Below, one piece after another: positions 1-58,159 of a stretch of DNA of 58,159 nt. The DNA is taken from the NCBI GenBank assembly GCA_000934665.2, contig JYFJ02002370.1, positions 1-58,159 on the forward strand, given 5' to 3'. The notes under the pieces are model-generated. The model was not told where the DNA came from. It worked only from the letters and a program-made list of their open reading frames with translations, and did no database searches. The DNA comes from Catajapyx aquilonaris. Its lineage: Eukaryota. How positions within the stretch are numbered: position 1 is the first letter of the stretch; every line of letters begins with the position of its first letter. The position numbers and the translations under genes were made by a program.

Positions 1-2399
1 AAGAGGTGGATCAGCAGTTGGCCCCATTCTGACAAATCAGATAACGTCAGGAGCAACTCCAAGCACGTGTATTCCCGTTTAGAGCTGGGGTGCTTCTGTG
101 GACAAATAATGCTGTATTTACCTAGGTCACAAACTTACCATGTTCTTCAACAGTTCCTGAATGTTGTTTTGTCGAAATTTCACAGGAACTTTCAAATTGG
201 TGAAGAGTGCCTAATTTAGGCGTGCTAGTGACGCAAGACTGACTTTCTGCAGTCCTATGATATTACGGAACTTGTTCCAGATTATCCGTAGCCATGGTAG
301 TGGTGAACAGTGTTCACGTCCCAAGACAGGTAATATCGATCATTTTTTTCCCACAAAATGTGCAATGATGCCTGATTTTCTTGTGAATAGAATTTACGTG
401 CACTTGCATGCTGTGTCTCTGTTTTTTATCCTTAATGCATGCGTGGAGTTTCATGTGCTCATGATTGTGTCAAATTAGTATCTACATGTAATATTTTACT
501 ATGTAAGATAAGTATGTTACTAATGTCTCTAATGTTATGCAAGTCAATTGTGTGGGTTATAGAAAAATGTATAGTTCAATAAAATAACGTGTTCTCCAGA
601 AAGATATTGTGATACGTTATTGCCATCTTAATGGTGTTTGGTGTGGCGTTGATGAATTATATAAATATCTGCTGATGAACGTCAAATAATTCGACAAGGT
701 TCTAGCTGCGCAAAGTACACCTGCGGCGCGGCGCGGCATCCATCAACGTAGGGTGACGTCGATGGATGTACTCGTAAGGTGCAGGGGCGGGGGCCACGAG
801 TCTTCTCGTTTTCTTTGCAAACCTCTGGCTTGGAGCATGTTCTCAGTGAATGAGATGGGAGTCCTCACTGTCTAATCAGTCACGGTGGGATTTGGATGAT
901 CAGATTTGGCGGTGGACAGTTCCTGGGTTGGATCTGATGTGATACTGGGGTGTTGGGCAGTTTCCTCGCTTCACCATCTCGAATATCTTCCACATCAAGT
1001 GACGTGAGCTGCTTTATTGATATGTGATGCATAATATATTAATGGTTTCATGCAGTAAACATGCGTTAATAGCACAATGGAGAGTAGCCCTATCCAGTGT
1101 CATCTCGAAATTATACTATTCCATCATTGGTGATGCCTTATCAGCCGTCTCTCTTGTCGTCATGATCTGGGTCGTCTGCAAATATTCCTTCTTTTTTTAA
1201 ATAGTGCAGATATTCGGGTGCCACTCTTACATACAAACGCTGCTAACACTTATAAGTCGCCTGTGTCACGTTTCTGCTCTAGATTCGTCTGATCTGTCCT
1301 GGTGCAACTGGCCATAAATCGTTCATGGAGCAACATCTGCAGTATTACAGTTCAGAGCAATGATGAGCAGAAATACCAGGCGAAGGTGAAGATAAATTCA
1401 GTTGTTCGAGGTTTCTGCAATACATTCATGTCAGTAGATTTGACCACTTCAGTATGAGTGTTTAACCCAGTAACAGTAACAGTAGCTCTGTCAAAATAAC
1501 TGCTTAAAAATAAGCAACGGCGTACTCTGTTTATCACTGAGAAATTCTACTGGTAAAAAATATTCCTGTCATCTTCAATCAGATTTGGCAGAAATATAGG
1601 AACGAGCCCTGCATGGCACAGTGCATTAACTATTTCAGTCATTTTATTCTGCACATTAGTTCCTGCTCAGCACTGCTCATCAGGTAGTCCTTCTTTGGAA
1701 TTCCAAAAATGTATGTTCAATGACCAGATTACAGGTTATGAGTTCTCTTTCAATCCCTGATCGAGTGAAAGTTTTTCAGACGGGAAAGGAATCTCGTTGC
1801 ATCGCATCGGTTCAATAAACTGAGCCTTAGGAATCACACCTCCGGCAATGCATGAGCCACGTTACAATCTGACAGTGAGATGTGTACGTGGAGTACACAC
1901 TTGGCATTCGTCTGTTTAATACTTTTTAAATTCCTGGTCTGGTAATATTTTCTGATATAATTTGTCACGTATCGATGCATCCATGTTAAGTGTCTTGTGT
2001 CGGATAAATTGATTTCCTAACTTGTCAGACTGTCGACTGTATTCGACTTCACTGCTAGGCTTGACCACCCGGAGCAGGCGAATAATTGTTGTTTAAAATT
2101 GGGTCACTGGGTTATGCTAGCGAGTTTTTTTTGTGGCTCATTCGTTTTGAGAGACAAATGTAGATTAACCCTGTGTTAAAAACTTTATTCAAAGACTTCA
2201 CATCCCAGTTAAGAAGATCTTGGTGGTCGTCCTGCGGTGGAATAAGTACGAGTTCCGACGGAATTTGTATTATTACAAGAGCAATATGGTTTGCATGAAC
2301 CGATCATGTCTGATCTTGTTTTTTGACAGGCCTGGTGATTGGAGGTGATTTTATCGATGATATCGGTTTTGGCGATTTATATAGTTCTCATTCGTTCTT

Positions 2400-2750
2400 T
2401 GGTGGGTTCCTTTCTCCATACATTACTCTCTTGGCCGAGCCAAAGTACACACATCAAGTGATCCTCGAACAACTATACTTGGCATTAAAATGGCACCATC
2501 CTCGTCATTTCCAATGAAATAAGTATGCAAATATGTGGGATTTTGATCAGAGAATTAACGACCTGGTTAAATGATAGACTTGACTCTGTATTTTGAAAGT
2601 AGATATAAAGTAAACCTCCGGGCAGGGCCATCCAAGTCGGACATAGTTGCCTCCTTCCTAATAAACCTTCAACCAGGGAGTGGCAGAGAAAGGGCTCTGC
2701 AATTGGCAGAAAAGAGGTCTTAAGAGAGCAGCAACTGAGCACAGAAAAAG
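2400..2750 (-). mobile_element. Degenerate Helitron Rep N-terminal fragment
   Basis: Minus-strand translation across frameshifts gives TFKIQSQVYHLTRSLI..DQNPTYLHTYFIGND, matching the Helitron motif TFKIQGQxYHxxGSLLPxxDxxPxFLQIYF. Paralog of 5250-5650. Confidence 0.6.
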
Positions 2751-3099
2751 TTGAGTGTCATTCCATGTCATGTAGACTGTCCATCCTTCCGTGCCAATTA
2801 TGGTGAAATTGGGTGCCATGGATGAATGACACTGCGTCGAATTATATGCTTGTTGAACGATTTCATATTTAACAATGTCTTATGGGTGTCACTCTCTACA
2901 TTAAGCCATTATTAAGGCAAGTTCAGGCGTGGCAACACCGAAGAGTATGCTCAGTTTACCAGGTGAATCTTCTGGAGTTTTTGACTACCGGGAAAAGGTA
3001 TAGTTGCATCCAAACATTACATTAGTGTGGCTAAGGCATCTTCTGCCTCATATAAAGGTATCTATTTGCCCTGTACTCTTATCTAATTACGTGGGGATT

Positions 3100-3590
3100 T
3101 TGTCTTATTATTGCCTTGTGGTTGGTTTTGTTTGCAATGTTATGTAATATTGTATAATGCACTCTGTACAGGATAAGCCTGTAAAATAATATTCCGCAAG
3201 ATCCATCTTGTCAGTTTTAATGAACTGACAAGGTGTGAAACAGATCGAAATTGTAGTGATGAGCATCTGGCACTGTTTGTCCCATTTTTGATTGACCTGG
3301 TTAGGGTTTCCCCATAATAATCGGGAGAGTTTTTCTGTCCCACTCAAAGGTGACCTTTATTCCCTATAAGAGGAAGGAGGGAAGGCTGGCGAAATACGAG
3401 GTACTACTTTTCCTGTATATCAAATCTTGTTGGTCAACTCCTCAGATGATAAAAGACAGTATTGTCTGCATCGTCTTCTGTGAGTGGAGGCAGATTATAT
3501 TGTCATTATTTATTGATTCTTTGCCTTTGATATGGAATGTTCTCAATTGAAATCTTTAAAAAAAAGTCAATGTTGGCCATGGTAGAGACA
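3100..3590 (-). mobile_element. Very degenerate Cys-rich (CxC/KDZ, HMGXB3-like) DNA transposon fragment; paralog at about 5940-6330
   Basis: The paralog reads KKNAHYYYGEILTRSIKYGTNCARC, preceded by DFIYRYRKRLIRPAFPP, which resembles CxC domains of KDZ/HMGXB3-type transposons. Similarity judged by eye only. Confidence 0.25.
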
Positions 3591-4049
3591 ACAGTATTGC
3601 TGTCCGCTGATTTGTTTTGAATAATTATGTTAGTTGCATTTCGTATGCACGCCTCTCTGCATACGAAATGAAATTAATGTATGGCAGTACAAACTCATCA
3701 TTTCTTGTAGGATACCCCCATAACAGAATATTTTTATATTGGGAAGCTCTCTCTACCATTACTGATTTCCCTGGTATGTTGTCATTCAACATTTTCTAAG
3801 TACTAACGAGCGACCAAGAGGATTATGCGTCCCCATGTGGATGGAACGTGTTTTAACAAGGTCTCAACAAAGACTGACAAAGACAGACTTGTCCCTTGCT
3901 TGCCTTCGACATTGTCGCTGTCGGTGGTGAGCTATCGAGGTAGGGGTGGTCTCCGTCTAAGGAAAATTCCATTGTACTTGGCCTACACCAGTGTCGTTCG
4001 CCCACACCCCCAAAATGGAGTGGTGGGGGTAAGAAACAAAATGTTATTA

Positions 4050-4770: not shown

Positions 4771-5249
4771 TTGCTGTCAATAAATGATCGTAAGCTTTCA
4801 GATTCCTTTGCAGTTGACTTCATTGCAAGGTAATATACAGTTGATTGGCGCCTTTTTTTTTCATTCCTGTTGGTTCATTTCGGGTGAGCCTCTGCAGTGG
4901 ACGGACACCATGCCACGTCAGGTGGTGGACTCGATTGCTACCTCCACCTTCCAGAGCAAGCGAAGAATTGTTGCTTAAAATTGGGTCACTGGGTTATGGT
5001 AGCGGTTTTTTTTGTGGCGCATACGTTTTGAGATACATTTGTATAGCTTAACTGTGTGTTTGGAACTTCATTCAAAGGGTTAGCATCCCAGTTAAGAATA
5101 TCTTGTTGGTGGTCGTCCTGCGGTGGAATTAATTACATGGCGAGTTCATAACCGATAATGTTTGATCATTTTTTTGGGGACATGCCTGGTCGTTGGTGAT
5201 GGAGATGATTTTATAAACGGTATCAGTTTTGGCGATTTATGTAGGAATC

Positions 5250-5650
5250 ATGCATTCGTTCTTTGTTCGGTTTCTTTCTCCATAACATACATTAGGTTCT
5301 TGACCGAGCCAAAGTACCCACATATACTTGTCGTTAATATGGCGTCATTATCGTCATTTGCAATGAAATAAATATGCAAATTTTTGGGATTTTGATCAGA
5401 GGCAGGAATTAACGTCCTGGTGAAATGATAGATTTGACTCTGTATTTGAAAGTGGGCACAAGAAGAAGTCATCTGAAAGCACTGTTGTACCCCCTGGTAC
5501 CATTGAGAAACTCTAGCTGATTTACATTCGTCTTTGGTTTCTTTCCTGACCCAGACCAGTAGCGAGTGTAGAAGCCAAGGCATCTTCTGCCTCATAAAGG
5601 CGAGGAGATCTTGTAGTCGTCGGGGGTTAACATCCTCCAGTTGATCCACC
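5250..5650 (-). mobile_element. Degenerate Helitron Rep N-terminal fragment
   Basis: ORF 5248-5649 contains QQCFQMTSS..FQIQSQIYHFTRTLIPASDQNPKNLHIYFIAND, close to the Helitron NSCFQMTSFG..FKIQGQIYH..LLP..D..PKFLQIYF block. Confidence 0.7.
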
Positions 5651-7039
5651 TCTAGTTCACGTGATATACTGGAGCAGTACGTGCCTTTTAAATTCAGGTG
5701 AAAGTGTGCAGTAGAATCACCCCCTCCATATGCCTTTCTTTTATTTATCTATGTATTCATGAAGCTGCCCTCACGTAGGGTTCTTTTTCTTATTCCCTTA
5801 TCATTCACTCCTATCTATTGGGTCAGATTAGAATCTGAGGCTTCCGTACAGGCAGGTTATGACTTGTTCCAGCACTCATCGGTGTCATTGGTGTCCTTCA
5901 ATGAACCCCCAGTTGTTTTTTGAGAAAACATGCACAACTGGCAAGGTGTGAAACAGATTTGTAGTGATGAGCATCTGGCACAGTTTGTCCCATATTTAAT
6001 TGACCTGGTTAGGATTTCCCCATAATAATAGTGAGCATTTTTCTTTCCCACTCAAAGACCAACTTGTACGAGTAAGAGGAGGAGGGAAGGCTGGACGAAT
6101 AAGTCTTTTCCTGTATCGGTATATAAAATCTTGTTGGTCAACTGCTGAGGATAAAATACAGTATTGCCTGCATCGTCGTGTGAGTGGATGTTTCACTCAT
6201 CAATTTACTTATGAGGTAATGACAGATTATATTATCATTAAATACAATTATTGCTTCATTGCCTTTGATATGGAATGTTCTCGATTGAAATATTTAATAC
6301 AAAATCAATGTTGGCCATGGTAGAGACATCAGTCCAAGTCCAAGTTTGCCAGTTTAGTGTATTCATTTCAGTACCACATGAATATTCTCACCTTTTTATC
6401 ACGCAAATGTTCTAAAATATTTATTTTAATAACTGAGGTTGTCCCCGTTCACATCCACTCAAAGGCCTATAGGCTACAGGTTGTAAGGAATGCTCCAATA
6501 AACCATCACTCAAGCAATCAAACCTGAAATTATTGTGTAATCAGTATCTGTTCGGCCATTCTGGTTGGCATCCTGCTGTTGCAGGTCTACCTTTTTCACC
6601 TCTGTGATTAGGGCAGTTTGCATAAAAATTTTGTTGTGAAGGAATGCTTTCAAGAGTTTTTAGCAGGTGGGAGTGACCTTTTGTGCCTTTCCGTTTTTTC
6701 ATGAACAGACGACTGCATTTCTCCACCTCCTGTCAACAAGATCATTTTTATTAATTTTTCCTCAACTCAGATGGGAGGCATTTTTTGTCTGCTTTTCAAG
6801 ATAAAAAGTGTTGGTCCTCTCTGACAGCAACAAAGTGCGCATCATTCTTGTACGTAATTCTATGTCATTTTATGCAAGTGTTGGGTTACGGTTTGTGCTG
6901 TGGTGAGGCATCCTTCTAAGCGTGGATGACCTCTTCTGAGATGTAAAAGAAATGCATAACAGTCTATTTCCATATGTGTCTATAAATGTGATGGGTCAGA
7001 TAGTTTTCACAATATGTTGTTCTCTCCAGTGTGGAATTC

Positions 7040-8433: not shown

Positions 8434-8434
<1 letters not shown>

Positions 8435-8484
<50 letters not shown>

Positions 8485-9999: not shown

Positions 10000-11615
10000 T
10001 CAATCCTGGAAGGTGTAGTATTCCCGTCAGAGTTTGTATGAGTTTGCCCTCTGCGTCCTTTGATTCGGCGGAGAAGAGTTCAATCATCTTATTGGTTTTG
10101 ATATCACCGAGAGCAATATATTGTTAAGTGCATGTTAGAGAATGCTCGCAGGGGGTGGATGGGGGAATTTATGTCCCTAACAAGTTTGGGTAGGTCCTTC
10201 GAGGGTTGCAGGTGGCGTTGACAGTGACTTGAGAGATGAGGCCTCAAGGAAGGGTAGGTGTCCCATAATGAAGCGATTGGCGCAAAGACTCGGGAATCCG
10301 TCGCACGCAGCATGATGGGTATAAGGAAACCGGGAGGCCTCCAATGTTGCTCGAGGTTTGTAAGATAATTGCTATCTCCTCTGGCTCTCGAGACCTGATC
10401 TTTCTCCACGCGAAATGAAGCCTTGAGAAAGCTTCTATCATAGCAACACAATAGAAGGGTAAAGGTCCTGAGTCTTCTTGAACTGCTCTTCGTTTTCTCC
10501 CTCCATCTATCCCACCTTTGCGTCTTCTATAGCCAGAAAGCCATTGTAGCTTTGGCTTCTTCCAAATCTTCGTGAGCTGCAGTGCAACCTGATGTGAAGA
10601 TTCCATAAAGATCCCCTAGGAGTCATCTAAACGGATCATTAGCTTGAGCAGGCAGTCTTGAAGCCTTCTTCAAATCGTTGGGCACTTCCACTCCCTTCAG
10701 ATAATATCTTCTGGCATATTCCAGTAGAATCGTCGATTTCCAGGATTCTTCAGGCTTAATGGGCACCTTGAGTGCTTTAGACCACTGAGCGAGAGATCGC
10801 AGGAACCCATCTACATACGCTTGGTTCCCTTCTGATGGACCTGGGGCAATTTCATCTGGTATGTTTAAGAGAATCACCCGATTATCACCCTGGCCAGGGA
10901 TAGAAATCAGAGCTCCGACATCAAAGGCAGCAGCAAGGATGAGTGATACGTGTCTGATCATTGTTCGAGTCATTTTAAGAAGTCGCTTTCTTAGCCATGA
11001 TTCTCCTAAGGTCATCGATTGGAACTTTGATACGTACTTACGAATGAGACGTGTTTTGTTCTATGGCCGTCTGTTATAGTCTCATATCTCACAATATTGA
11101 GTATATCCATACTGATGTTCTCCCTCTAACTAGATCAATACAAGACCACTGAATACGTCCCTAGATAGACATCTCTATTATTTAGGCCATCAATCATAAT
11201 ATGGTTGCCGGCGAAATACAGCAGATTGTGTGTTAGCCGGAATATTCTTATGAACTCTCTGTCAGCTCCGACTCGAAACAGCAACTCTTCCATATAGCCT
11301 CTCCGCTCCCACAGCCGCACCAAGTCCCGGCGATCTGCTATTCCTCTAACTTGATGTCTACTGACGGTCCTGATGTGGTCCTGAGGTATGCCAGTTCCGC
11401 CACTCTGTGGACCTTGTACACGTATTAATTTGCGTGTCGTATGCGAAGCCTCACTTAGTGATTTTCTGCGATGAAACATCGTCGCGGATATACATTCATC
11501 TTTGTCGTTGGCCTAGATCCATTGCTTCAGTTCTGTTGTGCAGAGTGGTAACGATTCCCTGGACGAAGTCCCTTCCCTGGACAGTTCACTATTTCATCGA
11601 TGGAAAATAACTTAC
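10000..11615 (-). pseudogene. L: Endogenous viral element: L protein (RNA-dependent RNA polymerase) of a Mononegavirales/Jingchuvirales-type virus, internally deleted and frameshifted
   Basis: Motif C ISIPGQGDNRVI (canonical GQGDNQ; Arg codon cgg is one change from cag). Motif D region KPEESWKSTILLEYARRYYLKGVEVPNDLKKASR. Downstream SSNIGGLPVSLYPSCCVRRIPESL (cf. LGGx..RxxPDPxTE) and DLPKLVRDINSP (cf. LxxDPxSL). Upstream VYLGTYSVVL..DLVRGRTSVWIYS resembles the L N-terminal region. Confidence 0.85.
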
Positions 11616-18965: not shown

Positions 18966-19212
18966 CAAGCAAGTAGAAAAGTCGGTCCCTTCATATTTCC
19001 AGCAGCGCCAAGCGGAAACGTGACATTATTTTACTTGTTTCTCATAGCCTCACGCCCCCCCCCCCGCCCCCCCCGGTTGGGAACAGGGATGTAAATAATT
19101 ATTATGTATGACGGTCTGTCTCCCCCCACTAATGACACTGTCTCTGGTGGTACAATTAATTAAATAAATAAATGAATATAATATAATTTTCCACCAGAAG
19201 TTTTTTCTGATT

Positions 19213-43010: not shown

Positions 43011-43074
43011 AATGCCATGTCCCGCAGAGTTACACTTTAAAGAATGACGTAGTCGCCTGAAACTTCAGAAGATG

Positions 43075-43128
<54 letters not shown>
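43075..43128. repeat. (AAT)n microsatellite
   Basis: Directly visible. Confidence 0.95.
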
Positions 43129-44275: not shown

Positions 44276-44660
44276 ATGGAGAATTTTTGCTTCCTTGGCC
44301 GTACCATTGCTCCTGTAAATAATAAATTGCAAGGAGTATATTCTATTAATGATGTAGAACGTCCCTTTAAAATATAATTATAATGAATTTTAATGGCTGA
44401 AAATGTTCAAAAAAAGTGTTGGTGGAGGTCGCCTATCTGTTGCCTAACGAATATACGACATGTTGCACTGGCCCATCCTCCATTTTTTTTTCCTAGCCAC
44501 CTTCCACACCTCCTCCACATGTTTATAAAGTGTTTGAACATATGTATCAGGCATGAATGGTCTTTAAATTCTGAGTAGCGAGCGTGTCACGCCAGTGTCC
44601 GCTCAGTGTAACACCACCCTTACTGTCCACCAAAATGACCATGGAGGTCTGACACTCTTA

Positions 44661-45520: not shown

Positions 45521-45559
45521 GTCATTTTGAGCAGGCACTGACTCCAGAGGTCTGACTTG

Positions 45560-45900
45560 CTCGAGCTACCCCGAAGAAGAGGGGACTCTGTATCATGAAA
45601 ACATGTGCTGTTGTTGCAGCATTTTCACTATCAAATGCTGTGCCAACAATATTGCCTGCCTTGTAATCTATGCGAGGTTTTAAATATATTTCGTCTATCC
45701 TTAGAGTAACCTTGAGATCAGACAAATCAAGTGCTGAAAACTTCTGCTTTGTGAATGACAAAAGCATGATCATCAGACTGCTCCATGGATGGGTTTGTAT
45801 GTAAAGGAGCACAAATTTTTCCGATTGTTCTGGGATGAGGCATCACTATGCAACCTGAACCTCTGCAGAATTTGTACACATGTGGAGATGCTACAGTCGG
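45560..45900 (-). mobile_element. P-element/THAP9-like transposase fragment (first catalytic D region)
   Basis: SPHVYKFCRGSGCIVMPHPRTI, then VTLRIDEIYLKPRIDYKAGNIVG..AATTAHVFMIQS. Confidence 0.8.
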
Positions 45901-46049
45901 ATATACCTTTCTCAGCAGTGATTTAATTTTTAGTCCTACATTGTTATACTCATATAATTTTACAGTGTTGCTTCGGCTGAAATTGAATGCTTAGACTACA
46001 CATATTGATGCACACTATAACATGACGCGCCTGGCTTTCGACTTCCTTC

Positions 46050-46400
46050 CACCATCATGCTCTTCTTCCGCATCTGCAGCTCTCCGTTTTGACGTCGTCT
46101 TCCGACATTGGAAAGCTGTTTGGGCGTCCGTAATGTACTGTGGATTCCTGATTGGCATATTTCTGGTGTTTCTGGGATCTCTGGCAGTAGGCAATCCATG
46201 TAAAAGGCTTTCAATTTTGGCTCAAATTTTTTTTAATCCCAAAACGTATCGTCCCGGAGTATGCGTTCAGTCTTCACCCCCCTGATAGGTCCAAACTGCG
46301 AATATGGCATACTTCCTCCTCGTCACGTGGAGCTGCCCCTGGACCTGATAGTAGTAGGGGGTGGTTCGTGTTTATCCCTGTGATTTCGGTTTTCGCTCTG
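46050..46400 (-). mobile_element. YqaJ/lambda-exonuclease-like domain C-terminal fragment (ISL2EU/Kolobok-associated type), copy 1
   Basis: NH..YYYQVQGQLHVTRR..ERILRDDTFW..KLKAFYMDCLLPEI..RNMPIRNPQY. Confidence 0.8.
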
Positions 46401-46493
46401 TTCACATTCCACACTGTTACTTTCCTTTGCAAAATGCGCCTCGCAAAGCGAGTCACTACATAAAACTGCACAGTACCCACAGAGGCAACTAAC

Positions 46494-46628
46494 CTGAGCA
46501 TCCATGACAGTTTTGGCACTCTCTTCCTTTATGAAGGTGACGGTAGCAGAATTGAAGGCATTCCCAAGCTTATTAAGAATCTCCTCCACATGGACTGCCA
46601 GTATGTGCCCAAAGTCGTGGAAGAATTT
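46494..46628 (-). other. 135-bp phase-0 exon encoding part of an RRM domain, copy 1
   Basis: taacatttgcag|KFFHDFGHILAVHVEEILNKLGNAFNSATVTFIKEESAKTVMDAQ|gttagt. Canonical splice sites; FGxIxxV and RNP1-like SATVTF followed by EESA. Confidence 0.65.
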
Positions 46629-47499
46629 CTGCAAATGTTAACATGGGATGAGCCAAGGTTTTTAAAACCACAAGCTGACTTGCGTGTCCATATTTATGCA
46701 GCTACAAGTTCACAATATTCTCTACTAGAAACAAGCGGCATCAACAGGTGAGCATATCATCATACAATCAAGTAATGAAAAATCGAGTAATGAGTAGTGA
46801 AAAATGGATCTGAGTACAATCTATGAATAATGGCAGTGAAGATTACCTCGACGTCTTGCCTCTTCCATTCCATTGGAATAGGATAAAAATAAATTGTCTT
46901 CTGTATGTGAAGATAAGTCATTTCTTTTGGGTACTCTGAATCTGAAACAAGTCGGAAAGATTACAATAACTCTGGACTCAATACGCATTGGTACACCCTG
47001 CACAATATAGGTGAAGGCAGTAGGGTAAATATTGCATTACACATGCCACGATAAAATCACCTGCAGGTCAGGATAGTCGTGTTCGTTTCTAGCATCATTA
47101 GTGCATTCGCGCGTATGTGGGAATCCCATGACGGATATTTACCTGAGCAATGAATGTGTGATATCTGTAGCTATAAGTGAAAAGGTAAAGCCTACTCACC
47201 CGATACTGCCAAAACGTTGGCTTTATAAAAGCCGGATCCGCCAGTTCGTCGTGATCAAGTGCTTCGCCTTTCCAACTGAAGATCCAGTCGTTGCAGTTCC
47301 CGGATGGACCTTACGTCCTGCTTGTCCACGTCTTTGCACCAAAATACTTCATGCACCGCCTCCTTGTTCACTGTCTTCTCTGATGGCAGATGATTTTTTT
47401 TCTCAAATACGGAAGGCACGACTCTCTCTCTTTTTTTGTTATCAAAAGTATATCTCACAACGGAAAACATGTTTCTTGCAGGCGGATATCAGCCGAGTG

Positions 47500-48330
47500 T
47501 TCAGGTAAAAGGTGAGCATCCACTTTGTGACATCCCGTGAGGGCTCCTCGCACCCAACTGTGGTGGACATGCCCACTTTAGTCGCTTCCTCAACAACTGG
47601 AAGATCATCGAAGGAAGTTAAAATTCATCAGCACCATATCTGGCGGATATGAAAACATGAATTATTTCATTTCTTACCATCAAATATTATATGTCTATAC
47701 AGGGGGCCTCTCTCCAGGACATTGAGGATGGCCGTCTCCAGCCTGTATATAATGTCCGTGAGTTCATCTGACGGCGCGAACAGGTATCCATGACTGCGAC
47801 ACTGAATGAGATCCTCGTCTTCATTCGGGTGTGGTGGCAAAACAGCATGCACATTGCGCAAGGGTTTGCGTCGGTACATTTCATTGCCTTTCTCACGACA
47901 TAACCGGTAAATTGGTGTAGTGTTCTCGATCCTGGTTTTTCGTGCAACTACCTTCAGGCTGTACGTGTCGTGAAAGGCGTGGAATAATAACTTAAAGGTT
48001 GGAAATAACGAAGTACCGTAGTTGTTTTCTGGCATTTATGGTAGACGATACTATAAATCATTGCACTTGAACAATGTCAAGCGTTAGAGTGTTAGACTGC
48101 ACAAATGAACATTACCTTTTTGCCTACGAGATAAGTCGATTCGTCTTTAGGGTTGTACGTGACCAAATCAGAAATGGAAGATATGTTGGCAAGCACCTCC
48201 GGTTTTACTAATTAATCTTCCCAGAAGGGATTTGAGCAGCATGTACACGTCTTCGCCTAAAAACGGCAACATCGGTTTGTCCGTTTGATATTTTTTGAGT
48301 CAGCTTGTTTGCAATGCATGCAAAGAAGCT
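47500..48330 (-). mobile_element. P-element/THAP9-like transposase C-terminal fragment
   Basis: PTFKLLF..TYSLK, GYVVRKAMKCT..CAMC and LIQCRSHGYLFAPSDELTDIIYRLE. Confidence 0.6.
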
Positions 48331-49069
48331 TAATTTGGCCACCATAAATTTATCTTTGCGTGAATCACGCAGCACTCTCTCTGTGTGTAACTGTCACCTG
48401 ATGGCTCCTTCCCTGTCTCGCCATTCACCTCCGGGACGATGGTATCGTCCGTGTTGGCTTCCCCCTTCTTCCCTGGGTAAAACTCGGTTATCCGGGACTG
48501 CCCCGGGGTGGTTACTGCCCCCGCCCCCGGTCTTCCTCCAGCTACCTGGTGCCCTTGCCCCTCCTCCTGCCCTCCCTCAGCGCTCTTCCTTCCCATCCTT
48601 CCCCTTCAACCTTCTCTCCCTCCGGAGCTGACACACCACTCAACTTGCTTTTCTGGGAGTAAAGCCTATGAGAGGCAATCCTGGGATTCACACGAACAAA
48701 ATGCCAGGCATCAAGTCGCTGCCAACCCTGGTGTAGACCTACTTCTGTCTGCAACCTGTAACTGATGCGATTGCAGAGCTAGGTGACTATGATGATTTGG
48801 AATGCTGGAGACCACCGTGCTGTGAACAGTGGGGTAGGATGGTGATCGATGGTGATGATGATGGAACAAATGGCTGTCGAAGATTGGCGGCGATAGGGGT
48901 GGCGCGGCGCCAGCGCCAGTGGCTGGTTGATTACACACTTTGTTCTTCAGCTGGGAATAAATCCCTTCTCCAGCGCGACGGGGCTGACGGGCTATGATTC
49001 GGAATCAACGGGTTGTTCGGAATGGATTCTCAGCGTAATGTCAGTCTATGGCGTTCTCGGCCCGAAGAG

Positions 49070-49196
49070 CGTATTATGCAGTATTGAAGGCGTGTGGAAC
49101 AGCATAAGTAATAATTATCATATATTGAGGCTTACCCATTCCCTCACAATATGAGCCATGTGAATCGGTGATCTGACCTGGACCATATAGAAACAT
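49070..49196 (-). mobile_element. Tc1/mariner transposase fragment (partial duplicate of 55250-55368)
   Basis: FYMVQVRSPIHMAHIVREW (cf. FxQDNxPxHxAxxVxxW). Nucleotide match to 55250-55368. Confidence 0.65.
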
Positions 49197-49199
49197 CCA

Positions 49200-49760
49200 T
49201 CGGCGAATTCCGCGAGCACAGAGGCTTCAAGGCTATCAACTGTTTCTGTGATCACATTCGCAATGGCCTCTCCCGTCACACCATTTTTGGAATCCACATA
49301 CCTGACGAAGTCTTCTCTCACATCCAGTGTTTCCTCGTGTACTTATCTGATCACCATTGGGTGCTGCTCCGTGTTGCTACTGTCTGTTGCCTCATCTGCC
49401 ATGATAGAGAAGTACCCTGCACTCTTAATATCGTTAACAATTTTTGGCGTAATAAAGTCTCCACAACAGGAGATGAGTTCAGGAGATGAGATAAGTAGCG
49501 TGTCTGGGGGCATTCTCAAGATGTTCTTGTGAAACTTTGTCACCTGCAACAATTCTAAATTCCAACAGCTTCTGGAAATTCCCCGTGTTTTCATTACCAA
49601 GTCAGTGTTGGCTGTCATCACGATGACCTCTCAAAGATATGTTTTGGCGGCCACAAAAAATGACAGTCTTTAAAATTGACTCTACATTTTTTGTTTTGTT
49701 TTGTTTGCCTGAACTCGTTCAGCTATCGCGTTGTTGAGCTGTAGGTGAACGGGTACCGTG
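49200..49760 (-). mobile_element. hAT transposase fragment (P52rIPK/THAP12-like)
   Basis: SILKTVIFCGRQNISLRGHRDD, KIVNDIKSAGYFSIMADEATDSSNTEQ..VIR and VREDFVRYVD..VTGEAIANVI. Confidence 0.9.
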
Positions 49761-50039
49761 AAAATTTAGGTTTTAGGACAGAGGATTGGCATTGCTACTC
49801 GCCCTCCGGCCCGATCAGGGCCCTAAACCTAAACCGTATGCACAACAATTACACAACAAACGGGGAATCCCATGGGTAGTAAACCGCCCACGGCCCCGCC
49901 GGAGTGGGCAACAAGCCCCCGGGGAAACCAGGCCGGCGCAGGGCGCAGCCGACAAGGAGCCCAGGGGGCCCCACCCAAACTGAAACCTAATCCTCCTAAA
50001 AACAGCGCCCCGTCCTCCCAGGCCCGGCCACTACTGCAA

Positions 50040-50632
50040 GCCGCTATGTATAAGTCAGCAGTTTCAGAGCAATATTTCTCAAATTCTGCTATGTCAATAC
50101 TGTATCCGCTAGCAAGTGTTCTTAAAATGATGCCCAAGCGTTTGATGAGGATTTCATCAACACCGGTTATATCTGAAGCCAAGGTAGGATTGCAGACAAA
50201 CTTCCGAGCCGTATTGCCATCATTGCTCGTACCGAATCCTGGTTTCGGGATGTCGACCAGAAGTCCCATTTCATCCCGGAAACTATCTTGAATGACCTTT
50301 TTTCGGACCTCAACCCGCTCTTTGTCAGGCTTTCGAATTTGCCAAGATTGCATTTCTAGCCTGTACGCGACGTGCAAGATGCACTCAAAGCACTTAATCC
50401 ATGCGTGCAGGCTCGATATCCCCAGCGTCAATGCGGCATCGTTCGGTTCTTTTCCACGGACAAGTTGTAAATTGTTCATCTGCTTAGGAGTCGCGCCACA
50501 AACGTGACAGTTCTGCGGCGCCTGATTCATAAGAACACTGCAAATTTTTCCCTCGATCATGCTGAGAGCTAGCTCTGGTTTGACATGTATTTCGCGCCCT
50601 TCTACTTGTACAACAGTAGGAGACAATTCCAA
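50040..50632 (-). mobile_element. Transib transposase core fragment (RAG1-related)
   Basis: LSMIEGKICS..NCHVCGATPKQMN..LGISSLHAWIKCFECILHVAYRL..MGLLVDIPKPGFGTSNDGNTARKF. Confidence 0.92.
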
Positions 50633-50635
50633 TAT

Positions 50636-50850
50636 TATTGTGTTCCTCCAGCCGGGCAAGGCCTTCCCGGAGATCGCCCTTAGGCGGCAAGTAGACGTTG
50701 ACTAAGGTGAACTCCAGCTCTCCCGATCGAATCGTGTATGCCTTAATGATGGGGCTCGACAGGGTGACCAGGCTGACAACCCTGGTTTCCCTAGCGTAAA
50801 CGACCAAAGCCACCGACGCCTCCTCCGAAGAAGGTATAGGTGCCTTAATT
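50636..50850 (-). mobile_element. Non-LTR retrotransposon APE endonuclease fragment
   Basis: ALVVYAR..EFTLVNVYLPP is an APE-type endonuclease motif. Higher GC than its neighbours. Confidence 0.55.
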
Positions 50851-50894
50851 ACAAGAAGTCACCAGTAATACTCCAGGCAATGAAGGGTCTAACC

Positions 50895-53373
50895 CCCCCA
50901 AAAAAATATAAAGCTGAAAATTGGCATGTGTGTAGAGAGACCTATTCTAAGTAAAATCTGAAAGTTCCCCAAAAATCCGAGCCCTGCTTCAGCCGCCATC
51001 TTGGAAAAATGGCGGCCAAAACACGCATCTACAAAGTATTTATTTTCTCCACAAGTAAGGCTCGAACGGTATTTTGTGTTCACGTCACATGCGAGCGGTA
51101 GCAATCAAGGCGTATTTTAAGACCATGCATGAACACATGAAGGCCATAGGTCATTCGCTGACCTCATTACATGCGGTTACTGCATTGAACTTCCGCATGT
51201 TTAGGAACAGTACGTGTGATGTACGCATCCTACGTGAATATGTTTCCAGTGAATGATATTAGCATAAAAGAAATATAGTATTAAAAATGAAACATAATTA
51301 ACAAGGGGAAAAATAGTATAAAAATAACAACAATGCAAGTGCAACATTAGATGAGACCTCTACGTTTATTAATGACAAGACCATTGTTACGACTCCGTAC
51401 TTTAGGACATTTATAGCATGTTACTAATTAAGAACGATGCAAATTATTATTATTATAAGACAACTATTATAACATGGGTTGCATGAAAGATAATACAGGA
51501 TGAATCTTACCAAGGCAGACCGTTATAAATCCCAGATATGAGCGTCATCATCATTGAAGGCATCCTCTGCTGTGTCAAGATCATTATCTTGAACACTGTC
51601 ATCTGGGACTTGCTCGTTGGTGCAGGATATTCCGTGGCAATAACTGCAATGTCCGTACATAGCAGGCCAGCTCGACGACATCCGCAACGGTTTGTGCAAA
51701 CCTCTTTGCAGAGGCACCTTATTAACTTGAGAACGTACTCTGGTGCTGGCGCCTTTGAAGTCGTGACTGGTTGCAAGCAACCGTTGCGCATCTGCCATCC
51801 CCATTCTATGGCAGGTAGGTTGCTTCCACGCCATTCTTGCACCTGATGATACACACGATATGAGTGCTGTCTTGCAGCTTCGGTTGTTGGTGGAAGACTG
51901 GCCAAATCGAAGGAGGTGCAACTAAGGGACATGCGACTGACAGTCCTGTTGTACGCATGGAATCTGGCTATGTCCAGGGATGCACACTGGCGCGAATTGT
52001 ACAATGCAAGAAGGAACTATTCCCCAGCTTTGGCCACATCATCCTTTGAGGATCCACGACTGTTGAATATGTCAACAAGATCACGCAAGTCAGTGAACTT
52101 TTCTAACAAGTTGAAAGCTTTTTTCTTCCCTTGTCTGAATGGAGCTGAAGTAGTATCACTTCCGGTGAAGGAATGGAGGAATAGTATTGCTGGAGTCATT
52201 GCACCGAGAGAGATCTGCAACTTCTTGGAGCTGTACACCTTCTGTGGTCTTCTTTGCGGGGGTGGCGTAACACGATATCATTTGACGTGGAATTTAGTGC
52301 AGTGATAAGCACAAGAAGATCCGTGTCCTCCCCAACAACTGCAACAGGTCCATTCGCATTACACTTTCCTATTGCCTATGTCCACATCAGCGTCCCCACG
52401 TGACTTGATAACACCAATACCAGCAACCATCATGCGATTTGCTAACACTTCAATTAACTTTACTTTGTTTGTTTGGTTGGACAGGAAGTGGGATTGAGAC
52501 GTGGTCACCGGCATGTGATCAGAGAATACTATATCTGCTGCTGCTGATTTCTTACTAGCCCTCCTTCTCCTCTCTTCGGTTTTTGTTGAACTGTCATCAT
52601 AGCCGTCAAATACGACATGTGTATTCTCCCCATATGACAATACGCGAGAAACGTAACAATCCAGCACATCCGCGTATGTGGCCGGACGTGGCCATACTGT
52701 AGAGTGGAGAAGATATCCGCCATCCAGCACAAACGCAGACACATGAGGCAGGACACTGTCGCATGGTACTCTCTCCTCCATTACATTGGCAAGTACTGCC
52801 TTGTTGGTTTTTCTGAATCCCACCTCGTCGAAAAGCGATGAGGGAAAAGGAGAGAATTCGTAACTGAAGCATTCCATGAGTTGCTCATCTGATCGAAAGA
52901 CACATACCAGACGGCTGAATAACTGCATTTGATTAATGACGCAATTATCGTCTTGTAGCTGAATACCCTTTGTCATATGGGCCAATGACTTCACTTTATC
53001 ACCTACCTGGAAACATATTCACGTAGGATGCGTACATCACACGTAATGTTCCTAAACATGCGGAAGTTCAATGCAGTAACCGCATGTAATGAGGTCAGCG
53101 AATGACCTATGACCTTCATGTGTTCATGCATGGTCTTAAAATACGCCTTGATTGCTACCTCTCACATGTGACGTGAACACAAAATACCGATCGAGCCTTA
53201 CTTGTGGAGAAAATAAATACTTTGTAGATGCGTGTTTTGGCCGCCATTTTTCCAAGATGGCGGCTGAAGCAGGGCTCGGATTTTTGGGGAACTTTCAGAT
53301 TTTACTTAGAATAGGTCTCTCTACACACATGCCAATTTTCAGCTTTATATTATTTTTTATAGGTTCACCTCTA
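50895..53373 (-). mobile_element. Internally deleted Academ (AcademX) DNA transposon with about 350-bp TIRs
   Basis: 50900-51249 is the reverse complement of 53007-53360. The right terminus reads 5'-TAGAGGTGAACC inward. The interior (51507-52994) encodes an XPG-like nuclease (VVFDGY..STK, GDADVDI, VVGEDTDLL, LHSFTGSDTTS), then LPPT..QHSYRVYHQVQEW..WGW and a Cys-rich C-terminus. Confidence 0.8.
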
Positions 53374-53509: not shown

Positions 53510-53680
53510 ATCTTCCGATCTTGGAAAGCTGTTTGGGCGTCCGTCATGTACTGTGGATTCCTGATTGGCATATTTCTTGTGTTTCTGGGATCAATGATCT
53601 CTGGCAGAAGGCAATCCATGTAAAAGGCTTTCAATTTTGGCTCCATTTTTTGATCCCAAAACGTATCGTCCCGGAGTACC
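53510..53680 (-). mobile_element. YqaJ-like exonuclease fragment, copy 2 (internally shortened)
   Basis: LRDDTFWDQKMEPKLKAFYMDCLLPEIIDPRNTRNMPIRNPQY. Confidence 0.8.
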
Positions 53681-53736
53681 GCCTCGCAAAGCGAGTCACG
53701 CCATAAAACTGCACAGTACCAACAAAGGCAACTAAC

Positions 53737-53871
53737 CTGAGCATCCATGACAGTTTTGGCATCCTCTTCCTTTATGAAGGTGACGGTAGCAGAATTGAAG
53801 GCATTCCCAGGCTTATTAAGAATCTCCTCCACATGGACTGCCAGTATGTGCCCAAAGTCGTGGAGGTGTTT
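53737..53871 (-). other. 135-bp RRM exon, copy 2
   Basis: Same splice sites; KHLHDFGHILAVHVEEILNKPGNAFNSATVTFIKEEDAKTVMDAQ, frame open. Confidence 0.65.
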
Positions 53872-54523
53872 CTGCAAATGTTAACATGGGATGAGCCAAG
53901 GTTTTTAAAACCACAAGCTGACTTGCGTGTCCATATTTATGCAGCTACAAGTTCCCAATATTCTCTACTAGAAACAAGCGGCATCAACAGGGGAGCATAT
54001 CATCATACAATCAAGTAATGAAAAATCGAGTAATGAGTAGTGTGGCTCGTCTCTCGCCGGACGGGTATGGACTGCTCCACGTTGCATCGGAGCAAGCATG
54101 TGCCATTTGCAAGAGACGAGTGTATTGCCAAAAGCGGCAGGATATGATACATCCTTCACGTAATACACTGTCAGATACAACATACAAGCTACCTACAAGC
54201 TGCATGTTACATCCAAGTTGATTAGGCATGCCTTCTTCACATAAATGTGTTTCTCTTGGCCAAAAAACACACATGGCCCTGGTGGAGCATAACTTTCCTC
54301 CGAGTGTGGGTAGTTCATCTGAAGTAATAATAATAAAATATATGTAGCGCCTAAGGTACTGTATTTGGTACCAAAAACTGAAAAAAGAATTATGCGAGTT
54401 TCAAATATTCATGCATTTTTCAAAGTCAAATTTTATAACAATCTGTCAAGAGAAGATAATCTTGGATCCTGCATGACAAGTATTTTAAATGGACCTAAGC
54501 ATGGATAAATTCAAACAACGCTC

Positions 54524-54800
54524 TTACCTCTGACATTCGTCGTCGAAAATGTCCCTAAGCGAGCCGCTCTCCTCTTCTGCCCGTCTTTTGCAACATGTGA
54601 CCAACTTACGGCGAGCCACACTACCGGAGTGATTGTGTGGTGCACGTTCCCTACACATCCCGTTAGCCACCACCATTCTTGCAGGACAACTGTCCTTGAC
54701 ACATTTATAGTACTGCGATGTCCCCGCAGCACTGCTCTTTCTGCATGCGAAATTGTTCCTAACGTATACAACACAGCCCTTTTTTATGCCTTCTATTCTC
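54524..54800 (-). mobile_element. FLYWCH zinc-finger exon (MULE-type transposase N-terminus)
   Basis: YYKCVKDSCPARM..HNHS..CKRRAEEESGSLRDIFDDEC, ending at a donor-like ag|gtaaga. Confidence 0.7.
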
Positions 54801-55009
54801 TCCATGGCTGAGGTCACGAACAAGTCTCACAAACGGTCACGCAGACACCGAAGGGTACACTGTTAAAAAAAACAACAGAAGGTTAGCTGCCACAACATGG
54901 TCAGGGAAGGTCTCTGATTTTGTGGAGGAAGGTAGAAGTTTAACTATACACTTACTTTCGCATGTTTCACAGCTTCCCGCACATTGTCCTGTTGTTCGTA
55001 CTCCGAATA

Positions 55010-55368
55010 TGTTGAGTCACCTTCGGTAACACTGTCTTTCAACCAAACCAAACCATGGCGGTGTCGCATAATGCGCGCGGCAAGGTCTGGTTCCTTCCCA
55101 CAGGGCGCTTTTGTTTTTGAACCTTATCTCCTGGAACCGATCTTTCAATTTACTCCACACGTTTTCGATATGGTTAAGATCGGCACCCTTTGGTGGCCAG
55201 TTCAAAAAGCACACGGAGGGGTTGTTGTGGATCTAAACGGGAGGTGAACTTATTATGCAGTATTGAAGGCGTGTGGAACAGCATGTAATTATCACATATT
55301 GAGGCTTACCCATTCAGTCACAATATGAGCCATGTGAATCGGTGATCTGTCCCGGACCATATAGAAAC
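55010..55368 (-). mobile_element. Tc1/mariner transposase C-terminal fragment
   Basis: RDRSPIHMAHIVTEW and LNWPPKGADLNHIENVWSKLK (cf. WPxxSPDLNPIENxW). Confidence 0.85.
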
Positions 55369-55870
55369 AAATGACAGTCTTTAAAATTGACTCGAGCTTA
55401 TTTTGCTTTGCCTGAACTCGTTCAGCTGTCGCATTGTTGAGCTGTAGGTGAACTGGTACAGTCTTATTCTCCATTGTTTTTTTTTTTTTTAATTCAGGCT
55501 GTGCCATTACTACTGCCGCTTTGTGGACTTCAGATAGTATCATGTTCCCTAAATTTTCTTGAAGCAGATGTCCATGATATTGTTGGACTATTCATAAGTA
55601 TATCAAGTTTTGCCCCATTTTTCCACACTCCCAACACACCTTGTAACATATTCGAGAGGTATTCTCAGGAAATGTGTCTCGCGTTCTCCCAAGTCGTGCA
55701 CAATTTCTCCTGGAAATCAGTCAGCCACAGTTTCACTTACTCCTGGCTGGTCAAATCCACCCCAAATTTCGTTTGGAAGCGATGCTCCTCAGCAAATGGT
55801 CTCAGTTTCTCATAAGAGCACACGTGTTATTTTAACATACCATCATGTGTGGGAATAAGATCCTGCAGAA
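55369..55870 (-). mobile_element. hAT transposase N-terminal fragment (overlaps 49660-49760 in sequence)
   Basis: PVHLQLNNATAERVQAKQNKLESILKTVI. Nucleotide identity with the 49660-49760 hAT piece. Confidence 0.7.
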
Positions 55871-56145
55871 AGAATGATGTCAGTAGGGTAAATATTGCAC
55901 GTATAGGCGCCTTAGGAGGTATTCTTCCCAGATTCTTGCATCGTGGGCACTCCCTCGCCAGCGGGCAACAACATCCAAGACTTTGTTGTCTGCCCCACAC
56001 ACAACCTAAAATTTTATTTATAAGTTCAGAGACACACAGTCATGCAGGTACACTGCTCTCATTTTGCTGTTGCAGTCACATTACTGTCCATTACTAACAG
56101 TAGTAACAGTAGTCCAGTCTGCATTGTTTAGATTGAAACCTCACC

Positions 56146-56670
56146 TGCACGTTTCTGTTTTATGTACAGCTGGGGGAAACGCCCACCAGGGCTTTTGATC
56201 TTCATGTGGGTGGCGTCAATGAGGCGCACCACACCAGGAAATCCGGCAAACTGCCTGAACGCCCTCATCTGCTCCCTGGCCTGTGCTGGTGTCCCGGGGA
56301 ATTTGACGTGGTTTCTCCTTTCCTTTGCCAGGGCATGGGCAGCCTTCCTGGTGATGAGGCTGACGGTGAGGCTTAAGCGTGCAAGTCCCCCACGTCCTCT
56401 TGCATGTCGTTCCTGGCAAAAAAACGGAGGGCAACGAGGACCAGCAGCTCCACTGTCGGCGGTCTGCCTCTCTGGGTCGTCTGGTGCGGCCGCAGGTCGT
56501 CCCGCACCATGTCCGTAATCCGCATGGCGTTGACTTTAGAGAATCGGTACCGCCCCTTGAACTCCCACTGCGAGTACTCGCGATACGGATCCTTACGTTC
56601 GCGGTAAATCCTCAAACCCCGCCTTTGTCGTTCAACTTCACGCACAACCCTGCAACTGATCCTTGCAGTC
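56146..56670 (-). mobile_element. PIF/Harbinger (HARBI1-like) transposase N-terminal fragment
   Basis: YSQWEFKGRYRFSK..VLVALRFFA..QEDVGDLH, then HVKFP..AFRQFAGFPGVVRLIDATHMKIKSPGG..YINRN, ending at a gtgagg donor. Confidence 0.92.
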
Positions 56671-56674
56671 GTAC

Positions 56675-56960
56675 ACTGTTTGGGCGTCCGTAATGTGCTG
56701 TGGATTCCTGATTGGCATATTTCTGGTGTTTCTGGGATCAATGATCTCTGGCAGTAGGCAATCCATGTAAAAGGCTTTCAATTTTGGGCTCCATCTTTTG
56801 ACCCCAAAACGTATCGTCCCGGAGTATGCGTTCAGTCTTCGCCCCCTGATCGGTCCAAACTGCGAATATGGCCTCCTCGTCACATGGAGCTGCCCCTGGA
56901 CCTGATAGTAGTAGGGGTGGTTCGTGTTTATCCCTGTGATTTCGGTTTTCGCTCTGTTCA
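56675..56960 (-). mobile_element. YqaJ-like exonuclease fragment, copy 3
   Basis: NHPYYYQVQGQLHVTRR..FAVWT..ERILRDDTFW..KLKAFYMDCLLPEIIDPR. Confidence 0.82.
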
Positions 56961-57049
56961 CATTCCACACTGTTACTTTCCTTTGCAAAATGCGCCTCGC
57001 AAAGCGAGTCACTTCATAAAACTGCACAGTACCCACAGAGGCAACTAAC

Positions 57050-57184
57050 CTGAGCATCCATGACAGTTTTGGCACCCTTTTCCTTTGTGAAGGTGACAGT
57101 AGCTGAATTGAAGGCATTCCCAGGCTTATTAAGAATCTCCTCCACATGGACTGCCAGTATGTGCCCAAAGTCGTGGAGGTGTTT
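57050..57184 (-). other. 135-bp RRM exon, copy 3
   Basis: Same splice sites; KHLHDFGHILAVHVEEILNKPGNAFNSATVTFTKEKGAKTVMDAQ, frame open. Confidence 0.65.
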
Positions 57185-57549
57185 CTGCAAATGTTAACAT
57201 GGGATGAGCCAAGGTTTTTAAAACCACAAGCTGACTTGTCTGTCCATATTTATGCAGCTACAAGTTCACAATATTCTCTACTAGAAACAAGCGGCATCAA
57301 CAGGTGATCATACAATCAAGTAATGAAAAATCGAGTAATGAGTAGTGAAAAATGGAGCTGAGTACAATCTATGAAAAATGGCAGTGCAAATTACCTCGAC
57401 TTCTTTCCTCGTCCATGTTAGTGGAATAGGATAAAAATAAATTGTCTTCTGTATCTTAACATATCTCATTGCATTTGGGTCCTCGCTCTCTGAATCTGAA
57501 ACAAGTCGGAAAGATTACAACAACTCTGGACTCAATACGCATTGGTACT

Positions 57550-58159
57550 GTAAGTCATAGCATATACCTTCTTCACTCGCCAGTCACATTTTTCTGGAAT
57601 GAGATCATGAAATGCCTTTGCTCGTTGTTTATGAACACGCATTTCTACCATTAGTGCAACCTTTTTCTTTTCATCTATCTCTACTTGGATTTCACTCCTC
57701 AGGCGAGTACAAAATGTACAAGTATCGGTAGCAGGCGACGAAAAGCCAATGTTGAACTCTTTGTTAAAAATCCTTGAAAACATTGATCGTTTGACATGGA
57801 ATTCTGAAGCAACATACATTTTCATCAATATTTAGCGATACTCAAGTTGCTTGGTAAATAAACCCTCTTAGACTTTGCTCTGTTATAATGACTCTTTTCA
57901 CACCTGTCACACCTGAACTTTCTCCTTTTTGGATTCACCTTTTTTTGCTTTTCCTCCTCTTCCATCCTGAATAGGATTTTCCTCCCACGCTTGCTTTGCT
58001 GTAGTTAGAAGTCTTCTTACAGGTGATACTCCAGTGGCAGCCATAAACATCTTTTGACACACTGTGTCAGAGTTACGGCGACCCGACCATAAAGGCCCCG
58101 CGCCAATGTATCTCATCATCCACAATTATTCAAAGGCTAATCAAGAACAAGAATTTACA
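57550..58159 (-). mobile_element. Sola-like DNA transposase fragment
   Basis: VCQKMFMAATGVS..DGRGG, SHYNRAKSKRVYLPSNLSIAK and FSRIFNKEFNIGFSSPATDTCTFC..VHKQRAKAFHDL. The superfamily assignment is from recall of the motif family. Confidence 0.6.

Follow-up and report, generated by a model that had tools for sequence, protein, structure and literature searches.

Loci in which captured mobile elements share one orientation, and which act as sources of PIWI-interacting RNAs (piRNAs), are described from Drosophila and Aedes, and they provide the frame in which we consider contig JYFJ02002370.1 of Catajapyx aquilonaris (GenBank assembly GCA_000934665.2), the whole of whose 58,159 bp, positions 1 to 58,159 of the forward strand, is referred to here as the window. 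In the Drosophila study, clusters resembling flamenco (flam-like) were sought by enrichment in long terminal repeat (LTR) elements together with strand bias, and both candidate species having public small-RNA data gave piRNAs from one strand only; the bias is attributed exclusively to Gypsy-family endogenous retroviruses (ERVs), and LTR enrichment forms part of the definition, as do large size, a discrete promoter and a position away from centromere and telomere (PMC10643416). Expression in somatic follicle cells is a further trait of this system. The accounts from Aedes place endogenous viral elements (EVEs) among transposable element (TE) fragments in unidirectional clusters with piRNAs antisense to both (bioRxiv 10.1101/127498), and report that antisense EVEs are over-represented in core clusters, whose transcription is often read-through of a gene lying upstream (bioRxiv 10.1101/2022.08.22.504762). 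Judged from its sequence, the window appears to be part of a larger strand-polarised transposon graveyard with one embedded fragment of an RNA-virus polymerase, and its likeliest role, to which we would give somewhat less than an even chance, is that of a uni-strand piRNA cluster. Among the known systems, a uni-strand piRNA source would be the best-fitting one, with a match to the EVE-bearing clusters of mosquitoes and a partial match to flamenco.

The Aedes clusters, as the cited texts present them, share with the window a non-retroviral RNA-virus fragment set among co-oriented transposon fragments over tens of kilobases, the EVE here having the orientation of the TE fragments that surround it. 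[quoted passage not shown] The Aedes viruses are flavi-, rhabdo- and chuvirus-like, unlike the Nyamiviridae-like fragment found here. Common to flamenco, its flam-like counterparts and the window are large size, a remnant bias opposite to the inferred transcription and applicability of the trap model of heritable memory (PMC10643416, PMC11400887). Flam-like clusters recovered by synteny measure 227-1085 kb (PMC10643416), compared with the 58 kb visible here; the strong strand bias of remnants that serves to identify them recurs in the window (13 of 14 on the minus strand), whereas the enrichment in LTR elements (Gypsy/ERV) does not, the only reverse transcriptase (RT) being a short internal stretch that lies on the other strand.

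The orientation count is based on stop-to-stop open reading frames (ORFs) of at least 53 aa (n = 432; 206 plus, 226 minus), of which 429 were scanned against Pfam, three ORFs across the single N at 44175 being left out, and on tblastn and on phmmer searches of PDB, with a remnant counted as supported at E<1e-3. By this measure 13 of 14 coding remnants are on the minus strand. They represent seven families: Helitron, a Nyamiviridae-like L polymerase EVE, Transib, Tc1/mariner, a YqaJ-type element, an unnamed element flanked by terminal inverted repeats (TIRs), and the RT of a long interspersed nuclear element (LINE). Expressed as insertion units (four Helitron, three YqaJ-type and one each of EVE, Transib, TIR element, Tc1 and RT; n = 12), the split is 11:1 in favour of minus (two-sided binomial p = 0.006). 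Pfam alone identified 12 ORFs at E<=0.01, of which seven reached E<1e-3, these comprising five on the minus strand and two on the plus strand that both derive from one LINE RT locus; the five remaining matches (PRC2_EED_ins, CUB, BURP and two to Nup35_RRM_2) were taken as noise. Relaxing the Pfam threshold to E<=1 for 66 long ORFs (39 minus, 27 plus) added one relevant weak match. Sensitivity of Pfam for decayed pieces is limited, for it missed the clear Transib fragment.

An earlier note on this DNA had described near-uniform minus orientation, interrupted by a LINE RT at 25593-26855 as the only clear plus-strand coding piece, and both statements agree with our evidence: the insert, which we delimit at 25593-26848, is the sole plus-strand piece among the 14 supported, and composition skew, ORF excess and direct repeats (see below) all concur with the orientation. 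The same note spoke of over 20 fragments, drawn from about 15 families and set almost end to end. We arrive at 14 pieces from seven families covering 13.6% of the window, plus four weak leads, and about half of the claimed families could not be verified. Its observation is real in the core and overstated in numbers. The further remarks that DNA transposons outweigh LTR elements and that most remnants are internal pieces are borne out, in that the 429 ORFs gave no match to any integrase, gag, protease or env family and the alignments extend over approximately residues 663-858 of 1961 in the viral L protein, residues 194-380 of 497 in the chain of the Transib-type PDB entry 6pqn, and only about residues 270-490 in the Helitron proteins. 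An exception to uniform orientation, absent from that description, is the unit of ~470 bp at 20086-21723, ordered minus, plus, minus.

Tests that use no database are stronger than the family-level count of orientations. The plus strand is T-rich, with AT skew below zero in 52 of the 58 1-kb bins; the verified minus-strand pieces have a skew of -0.091, the LINE piece one of +0.109 and the other 50.7 kb one of -0.070, within which the unannotated stretch 29892-43000 has -0.067. ORFs of at least 100 aa number 47 on the minus strand, as compared with 15.1+-3.7 in simulated sequence, and 25 on the plus strand, as compared with 17.1+-4.0 (n = 300 block-wise Markov simulations in which each 2-kb block keeps its dinucleotide content). 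The minus-strand count was matched in none of the 300 simulations, the plus-strand count in nine, and the minus-over-plus difference of 22 in none. Base composition as the cause of the minus-strand excess was rejected, since in the block-wise simulations long ORFs are slightly less numerous on the minus strand than on the plus strand. Fourteen of the 25 ORFs on the plus strand (one of them an RT ORF) overlap coding on the minus strand, of which they look like shadows, and one more, 25732-26403, belongs to the RT. Self-comparison by BLAST gave 35 pairs of high-scoring segments (HSPs) at E<1e-10, of which seven are microsatellite (AAT/ATA), five inverted and 23 direct. The inverted pairs consist of the one TIR pair and four within the palindromic complex at 20086-21723; all 22 interspersed self-matches are direct, the 23rd direct pair lying inside the palindromic complex. 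The core of the polarity is real, and it is a strong bias to the minus strand. Since it runs to both ends of the window, the feature has its limits beyond them. Regarding GC skew of the plus strand, it is positive in 28 of 36 1-kb bins at 1-36000 and in 6 of 22 at 36001-58159, AT skew being negative throughout.

The viral fragment (Table 1) comprises about 200 of the 1961 L residues and represents a piece of the polymerase core. The ORF 10626-11060, which contains the GDN motif, matches Pfam Mononeg_RNA_pol (E 3.2e-6), and L proteins in PDB match it at E 1.7e-6. Its closest longer relatives are the RNA-dependent RNA polymerase (RdRp) of Wenzhou tapeworm virus 1 and a third-party annotation (TPA) twin, 'Taeniapi tapwovirus' (E 1.1e-16 and 2.5e-15, 44% identity), viruses that we take to belong to the Nyamiviridae; no relatives of this ORF were found in viral contigs. 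In the tblastn alignment the reading frame shifts near 10474-10548. Similarity to an RNA-virus protein, the setting in repeat DNA, the short extent and the change of frame together mark the fragment as an EVE, and its minus orientation is that of the Helitron pieces on either side (5113-5628, 18371-18929). The ORFs beside it (10107-10526, 10247-10615, 11138-11512) gave no Pfam family, and hence no Ty3/gypsy or Pao-Bel neighbour in the same orientation.

Helitron remnants were located by tblastn with 120 of the longer Helitron proteins, which gave six clusters, all minus, and no match to the helicase part. Blocks 2069-3595 and 4951-6333, which hold the two oldest remnants, form a direct repeat of ~75% identity. 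Units 1 and 2 (Table 1) each contain a Helitron_like_N domain (ORF 18552-18944, Pfam E 3e-28; ORF 27057-27449, E 2.5e-21); they are collinear at 81-95% identity, with ends in common and flanks that differ, and are therefore understood as adjacent separate insertions of one Helitron-like family, not as a segmental duplication. Unit 1 carries later inserts at 19213-20557 and 20752-22217. Inside the first of these, short tandem repeats (periods 9, 12, 14 and 21) at 19224-19957 give rise to His-, Pro- and Ser-rich low-complexity ORFs on the minus strand. The palindromic complex is likewise an insert within unit 1, and its copies each hold an ORF of 108-126 aa that has no Pfam family. Unit 2 harbours the LINE RT, whose two RVT_1 ORFs (25732-26403 and 26378-26857) cover profile positions 6-204 of 205. 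This piece of 1256 bp is without poly-A, stops inside the RT ORF and sits in place of 280 bp present in unit 1 (18067-18346); no target duplication was seen around it. It looks like a product of capture or repair patching, not of retrotransposition.

The right-hand part of the window adds the cut-and-paste elements. The Transib-type fragment is assigned through PDB entry 6pqn, presumably a Transib transposase. The TIR element looks like a nearly complete, young transposon: its coding region 51562-53018 (minus) aligns with residues 31-492 of a 532-aa protein (tblastn E 6.5e-106) and is the sole cluster found with the best 150 of 3050 representatives as queries. The ORF 52362-53018 is a member of an unnamed but widespread family (3050 representatives at E<=0.001), of which ten long members were scanned and three showed weak matches only (two to DUF6589, one to NYN_YacP). 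The YqaJ-type remnants were delineated with 13 query proteins that yielded 45 HSPs, all minus, in three places; the copies span just the last ~100-120 residues of proteins 417-1193 aa long, and a DNA repeat family at 46116-46994, 53511-54042 and 56676-57548 is direct throughout, with 90-96% identity. Thirteen longer relatives of ORF 56641-57249 carry PF09588 (which we take to be the YqaJ family), PF20700 and often PF01771, and the source record of one gives the name 'putative phage-type endonuclease'; the ORF has no PDB match. Finally, the Tc1-like stretch 55251-55462 recurs directly at 49072-49195 and 49655-49759, the two parts being separated by a 460-bp insert.

Table 1. Remnants, leads and other features placed in the window, in order of position
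Feature	Position	Strand	Basis
Helitron Rep N-terminal remnant, old	2492-2654	minus	tblastn best E 6e-7
Helitron Rep N-terminal remnant, old	5113-5628	minus	tblastn best E 1e-9
Mononegavirus L polymerase, internal fragment	10265-10949	minus	tblastn with tapeworm-virus L protein
Helitron-like unit 1	17611-24463	minus	Rep N-terminal coding 18371-18929, 20546-20780
Palindromic complex, ~470-bp unit	20086-21723	minus, plus, minus	Self-BLAST; copies 96-98% identical
Helitron-like unit 2	25133-29891	minus	Rep N-terminal coding 26638-27434, 27533-27805; tblastn E 1.4e-54
LINE RT, internal fragment	25593-26848	plus	RVT_1 E 1e-15 and 1.8e-16; only supported plus-strand coding piece
Eight consecutive ORFs of at least 100 aa without family	34852-38851	minus	ORF lists; GC-richer (~0.48)
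P-element/THAP9-type transposase piece (weak lead)	45525-45842	minus	TNP-like_RNaseH_N E 0.013, below curated cut-off
YqaJ-type C-terminal remnant, copy 1	46024-46435	minus	tblastn best E 1.3e-16
Transib-type transposase, internal fragment	50042-50602	minus	phmmer of ORF 49832-50701 against PDB 6pqn 'DNA-mediated transposase', E 4.9e-45
TIR element, apparently near-complete	50900-53356	minus	350-bp TIRs 98.3% identical (50900-51249, 53007-53356); 2.46 kb
YqaJ-type C-terminal remnant, copy 2	53512-53739	minus	tblastn best E 2e-18
FLYWCH zinc-finger ORF (weak)	54527-54826	minus	Pfam E 3.7e-4, 21.0 bits, below cut-off 23.6
Tc1/mariner-type DDE_3 transposase, C-terminal end	55020-55232	minus	Pfam E 1.2e-6, 28.9 bits against cut-off 28.6; profile 109-145 of 146
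Harbinger-type transposase, N-terminal piece (lead only)	56376-56777	minus	Protein atlas, nearest clusters 0.94 (207/256 features)
YqaJ-type C-terminal remnant, copy 3	56650-57009	minus	Homologues E 5.7e-21; tblastn E 3e-25

The elements so aligned enter DNA by different mechanisms (rolling-circle for Helitron; cut-and-paste for Transib, Tc1 and the TIR element; a viral fragment besides), and no single insertion preference explains their common orientation. Since unrelated families are co-oriented and the polarity continues through unique DNA, the evidence points to selection, or a transcription-linked process, that shaped the whole region, as opposed to insertion preference or duplication alone. 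The window displays the anatomy on which a piRNA cluster would depend: polarity and composition skew over its full length, remnants that are fragmentary and nested, and an EVE in the orientation of the transposon pieces. Identities are graded (98% between the TIRs, 81-95% between the Helitron units, ~75% between the older copies), which, together with the nested inserts, implies that the locus grew by repeated on-site insertion over a long time. From this anatomy we infer transcription, its direction, piRNA processing and a silencing effect. A long transcript would start upstream of the window and traverse the plus strand from left to right, its orientation antisense to almost every captured element as well as to the mRNA for the viral L protein; cut into piRNAs, it would guide PIWI proteins against the captured elements. 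The interpretation is plausible, reasonable and well precedented.

Several points weigh against a piRNA source locus of this kind. Counted by family, the split is 6:1 (two-sided p = 0.125) and not significant alone, becoming 10:1 when four weak leads, all minus, are added (FLYWCH; TNP-like_RNaseH_N at E 0.013; the Harbinger-type atlas lead; a LINE N-terminus at PDB E 0.19); significance at the level of units hinges on treating same-family copies as independent, and the pair 2069-3595 and 4951-6333 may be a tandem duplication. Supported remnants total 7894 bp, that is, the 13.6% of the window given above, and 30-43 kb is devoid of coding detectable by Pfam on either strand. The large-database searches used minus-strand ORFs, save one plus-strand control in the protein atlas (ORF 41082-41591, no match; recognition 1044, best score 0.78), and this part of the annotation is biased accordingly; the Pfam, ORF-count and skew tests are free of such query bias. 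AATAAA hexamers, 43 on plus and 33 on minus, are not depleted on the strand proposed to be transcribed. The window combines polarity and EVE co-orientation with failure in the LTR/Gypsy feature of both the Aedes and the flam systems: no integrase, gag, protease or env signal of LTR/Gypsy or Pao-Bel type emerged from the 429 ORFs or from 48 read-through frames, an absence that counts because the strand bias of flamenco is carried by LTR elements, which in Aedes are the companions of the EVEs. A PIWI pathway in the host is, moreover, an assumption.

Alternatively, the window could belong to a host transcription unit on the plus strand (a long intron, a 3' extension or the body of a long non-coding RNA) from which sense insertions were purged on account of their splice and poly-A signals, with polarity as a side effect of normal host-gene expression and no role in piRNA production; we consider this possibility, which the earlier note also raised, unlikely, yet better placed than the other two alternatives. 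In introns transcribed in the mammalian germline the sense strand shows T>A together with G>C, and this is the pattern of signs in the first 36 1-kb bins, where AT skew is negative in 34 and GC skew positive in 28; no minus-strand host gene is evident. An excess of remnants on one strand and a T-rich sense strand are what the window has in common with mammalian introns. Past 36 kb, however, the GC skew flips, only 6 of 22 bins being positive. Intronic antisense bias is modest and chiefly involves LINE and LTR elements, whereas the split here is 11:1 and carried by DNA transposons of the cut-and-paste kind, and no exons were seen in the window. Neither the 206 plus-strand ORFs nor the read-through frames yielded a host-like domain in Pfam, and AATAAA shows no depletion on the plus strand. 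An intron of this type overlaps in concept with genic or read-through piRNA clusters, so that piRNA production would not be fully excluded even then.

Polarity that arose structurally, with no selection, appears more doubtful still; it would have come about through Helitrons inserted in tandem or side by side, through local tandem duplications that preserved orientation, and through chance among the few independent insertions left. Four Helitron-derived units do occur in two pairs (2069-3595 with 4951-6333; 17611-24463 with 25133-29891), as adjacent units of the same orientation do in Helitron arrays, three YqaJ-type copies are 90-96% identical, the family-level split falls short of significance and large parts are unannotated. 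Duplication, however, cannot align families as unrelated as EVE, Transib, Tc1, TIR element, YqaJ type and Helitron, and the differing flanks of the two large Helitron units mark these as separate insertions. A Helitron array would account for 17.6-29.9 kb at most and not for the co-oriented Transib, Tc1, TIR-element, YqaJ-type and viral pieces, and skew and ORF excess extend over unique sequence, as in 29892-43000. Least probable, and quite improbable in itself, is that the window, in whole or in part, is cargo of one large composite, for example Helitron-type, mobile element with fragments captured in its own orientation, the pieces having been assembled elsewhere and having arrived together: the many internal fragments without termini, the candidate common ends of the Helitron units and the RT piece, which lacks poly-A and insertion hallmarks, cleanly substitutes 280 bp and so has the look of gene-fragment capture or patch repair, are in its favour. 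Against it, the Helitron units are only ~4.8-6.9 kb long and confined to 17.6-29.9 kb, and no terminal structure surrounds the whole window. Insertion on site is indicated, moreover, by the 98% identical TIRs that the element at 50900-53356 possesses and by the later insert that interrupts a Tc1-like copy.

Three stretches were covered by six-frame read-through translation against Pfam, which gave no family in 24 frames over 29901-41902, one noise hit in 18 frames over 42901-51902 and nothing in six frames over 1-3002. The run of eight minus-strand ORFs at 34852-38851 may represent an uncharacterised element family. Plus-strand ORFs of at least 100 aa are absent from 33.4 to 41.0 kb. The run has no Pfam match; its three minus-strand read-through frames (34850-38851) gave nothing in PDB or matches at E 0.04-0.09 that were taken as noise, and 37705-38397 retrieved designed repeat proteins only, with no scoring stretch. 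Designed repeat proteins were likewise all that PDB returned for the P-element/THAP9-type lead at 45525-45842. The Harbinger-type lead at 56376-56777 found no Pfam match in standard and relaxed scans; one of its atlas clusters has DUF8040 in 23% of members, with Arthropoda the commonest phylum. A candidate LINE RT N-terminus at 43.6-44.1 kb (minus) aligns by BLASTP to the plus-strand RT ORF in the expected register (E=1.0, unverified), and 43796-44119 meets R2 proteins in PDB at E 0.19-0.26, not significant. Further leads seen by eye, unverified and all minus, are hAT-like (49346-49630), LINE endonuclease-like (50639-50858) and Harbinger-like (56131-56777), in addition to an N-terminal motif common to ~39.0, 43.5 and 57.6 kb.

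Regarding general composition, GC content is 39-49% across the window. The observed/expected ratio of CpG is 0.69 in the whole window, with TG and CA at 1.24, and this CpG depletion with TG/CA surplus suggests some germ-line cytosine methylation of repeat-rich DNA. Perfect microsatellites, (AAT)16 at 8435-8482 and (ATA)18 at 43075-43128, are the source of seven of the 35 self-BLAST pairs. A tRNA search of the window found no genes, and no Rfam family matched at gathering thresholds.

Lastly, the content of the window bears on what kind of archive a uni-strand piRNA source can be. Should the region be an intron or a product of duplication instead, it would be ordinary repeat-rich DNA. If small RNAs confirm the piRNA source, a uni-strand cluster would have been predicted from sequence, one unusual in holding DNA transposons, Helitrons and a Nyamiviridae-like EVE without any detectable LTR element, and its domination by DNA transposons would be the noteworthy point. 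We advance more tentatively, as a possibility that we consider appreciable yet not probable, that the locus is a one-strand piRNA trap of flamenco type in an invertebrate other than the model flies and mosquitoes, with an antisense archive made up almost wholly of DNA transposons, Helitrons and the Nyamiviridae-like fragment. If true, selection for antisense capture would act on cut-and-paste elements, rolling-circle elements and RNA viruses without LTR-mediated entry, and not only on ERV-like retroelements. The trap model would thereby be widened to take in further classes of element and a virus family outside the discussion of the mosquito papers cited here, and strand polarity in combination with composition skew would gain support as a genome-only predictor of such loci.

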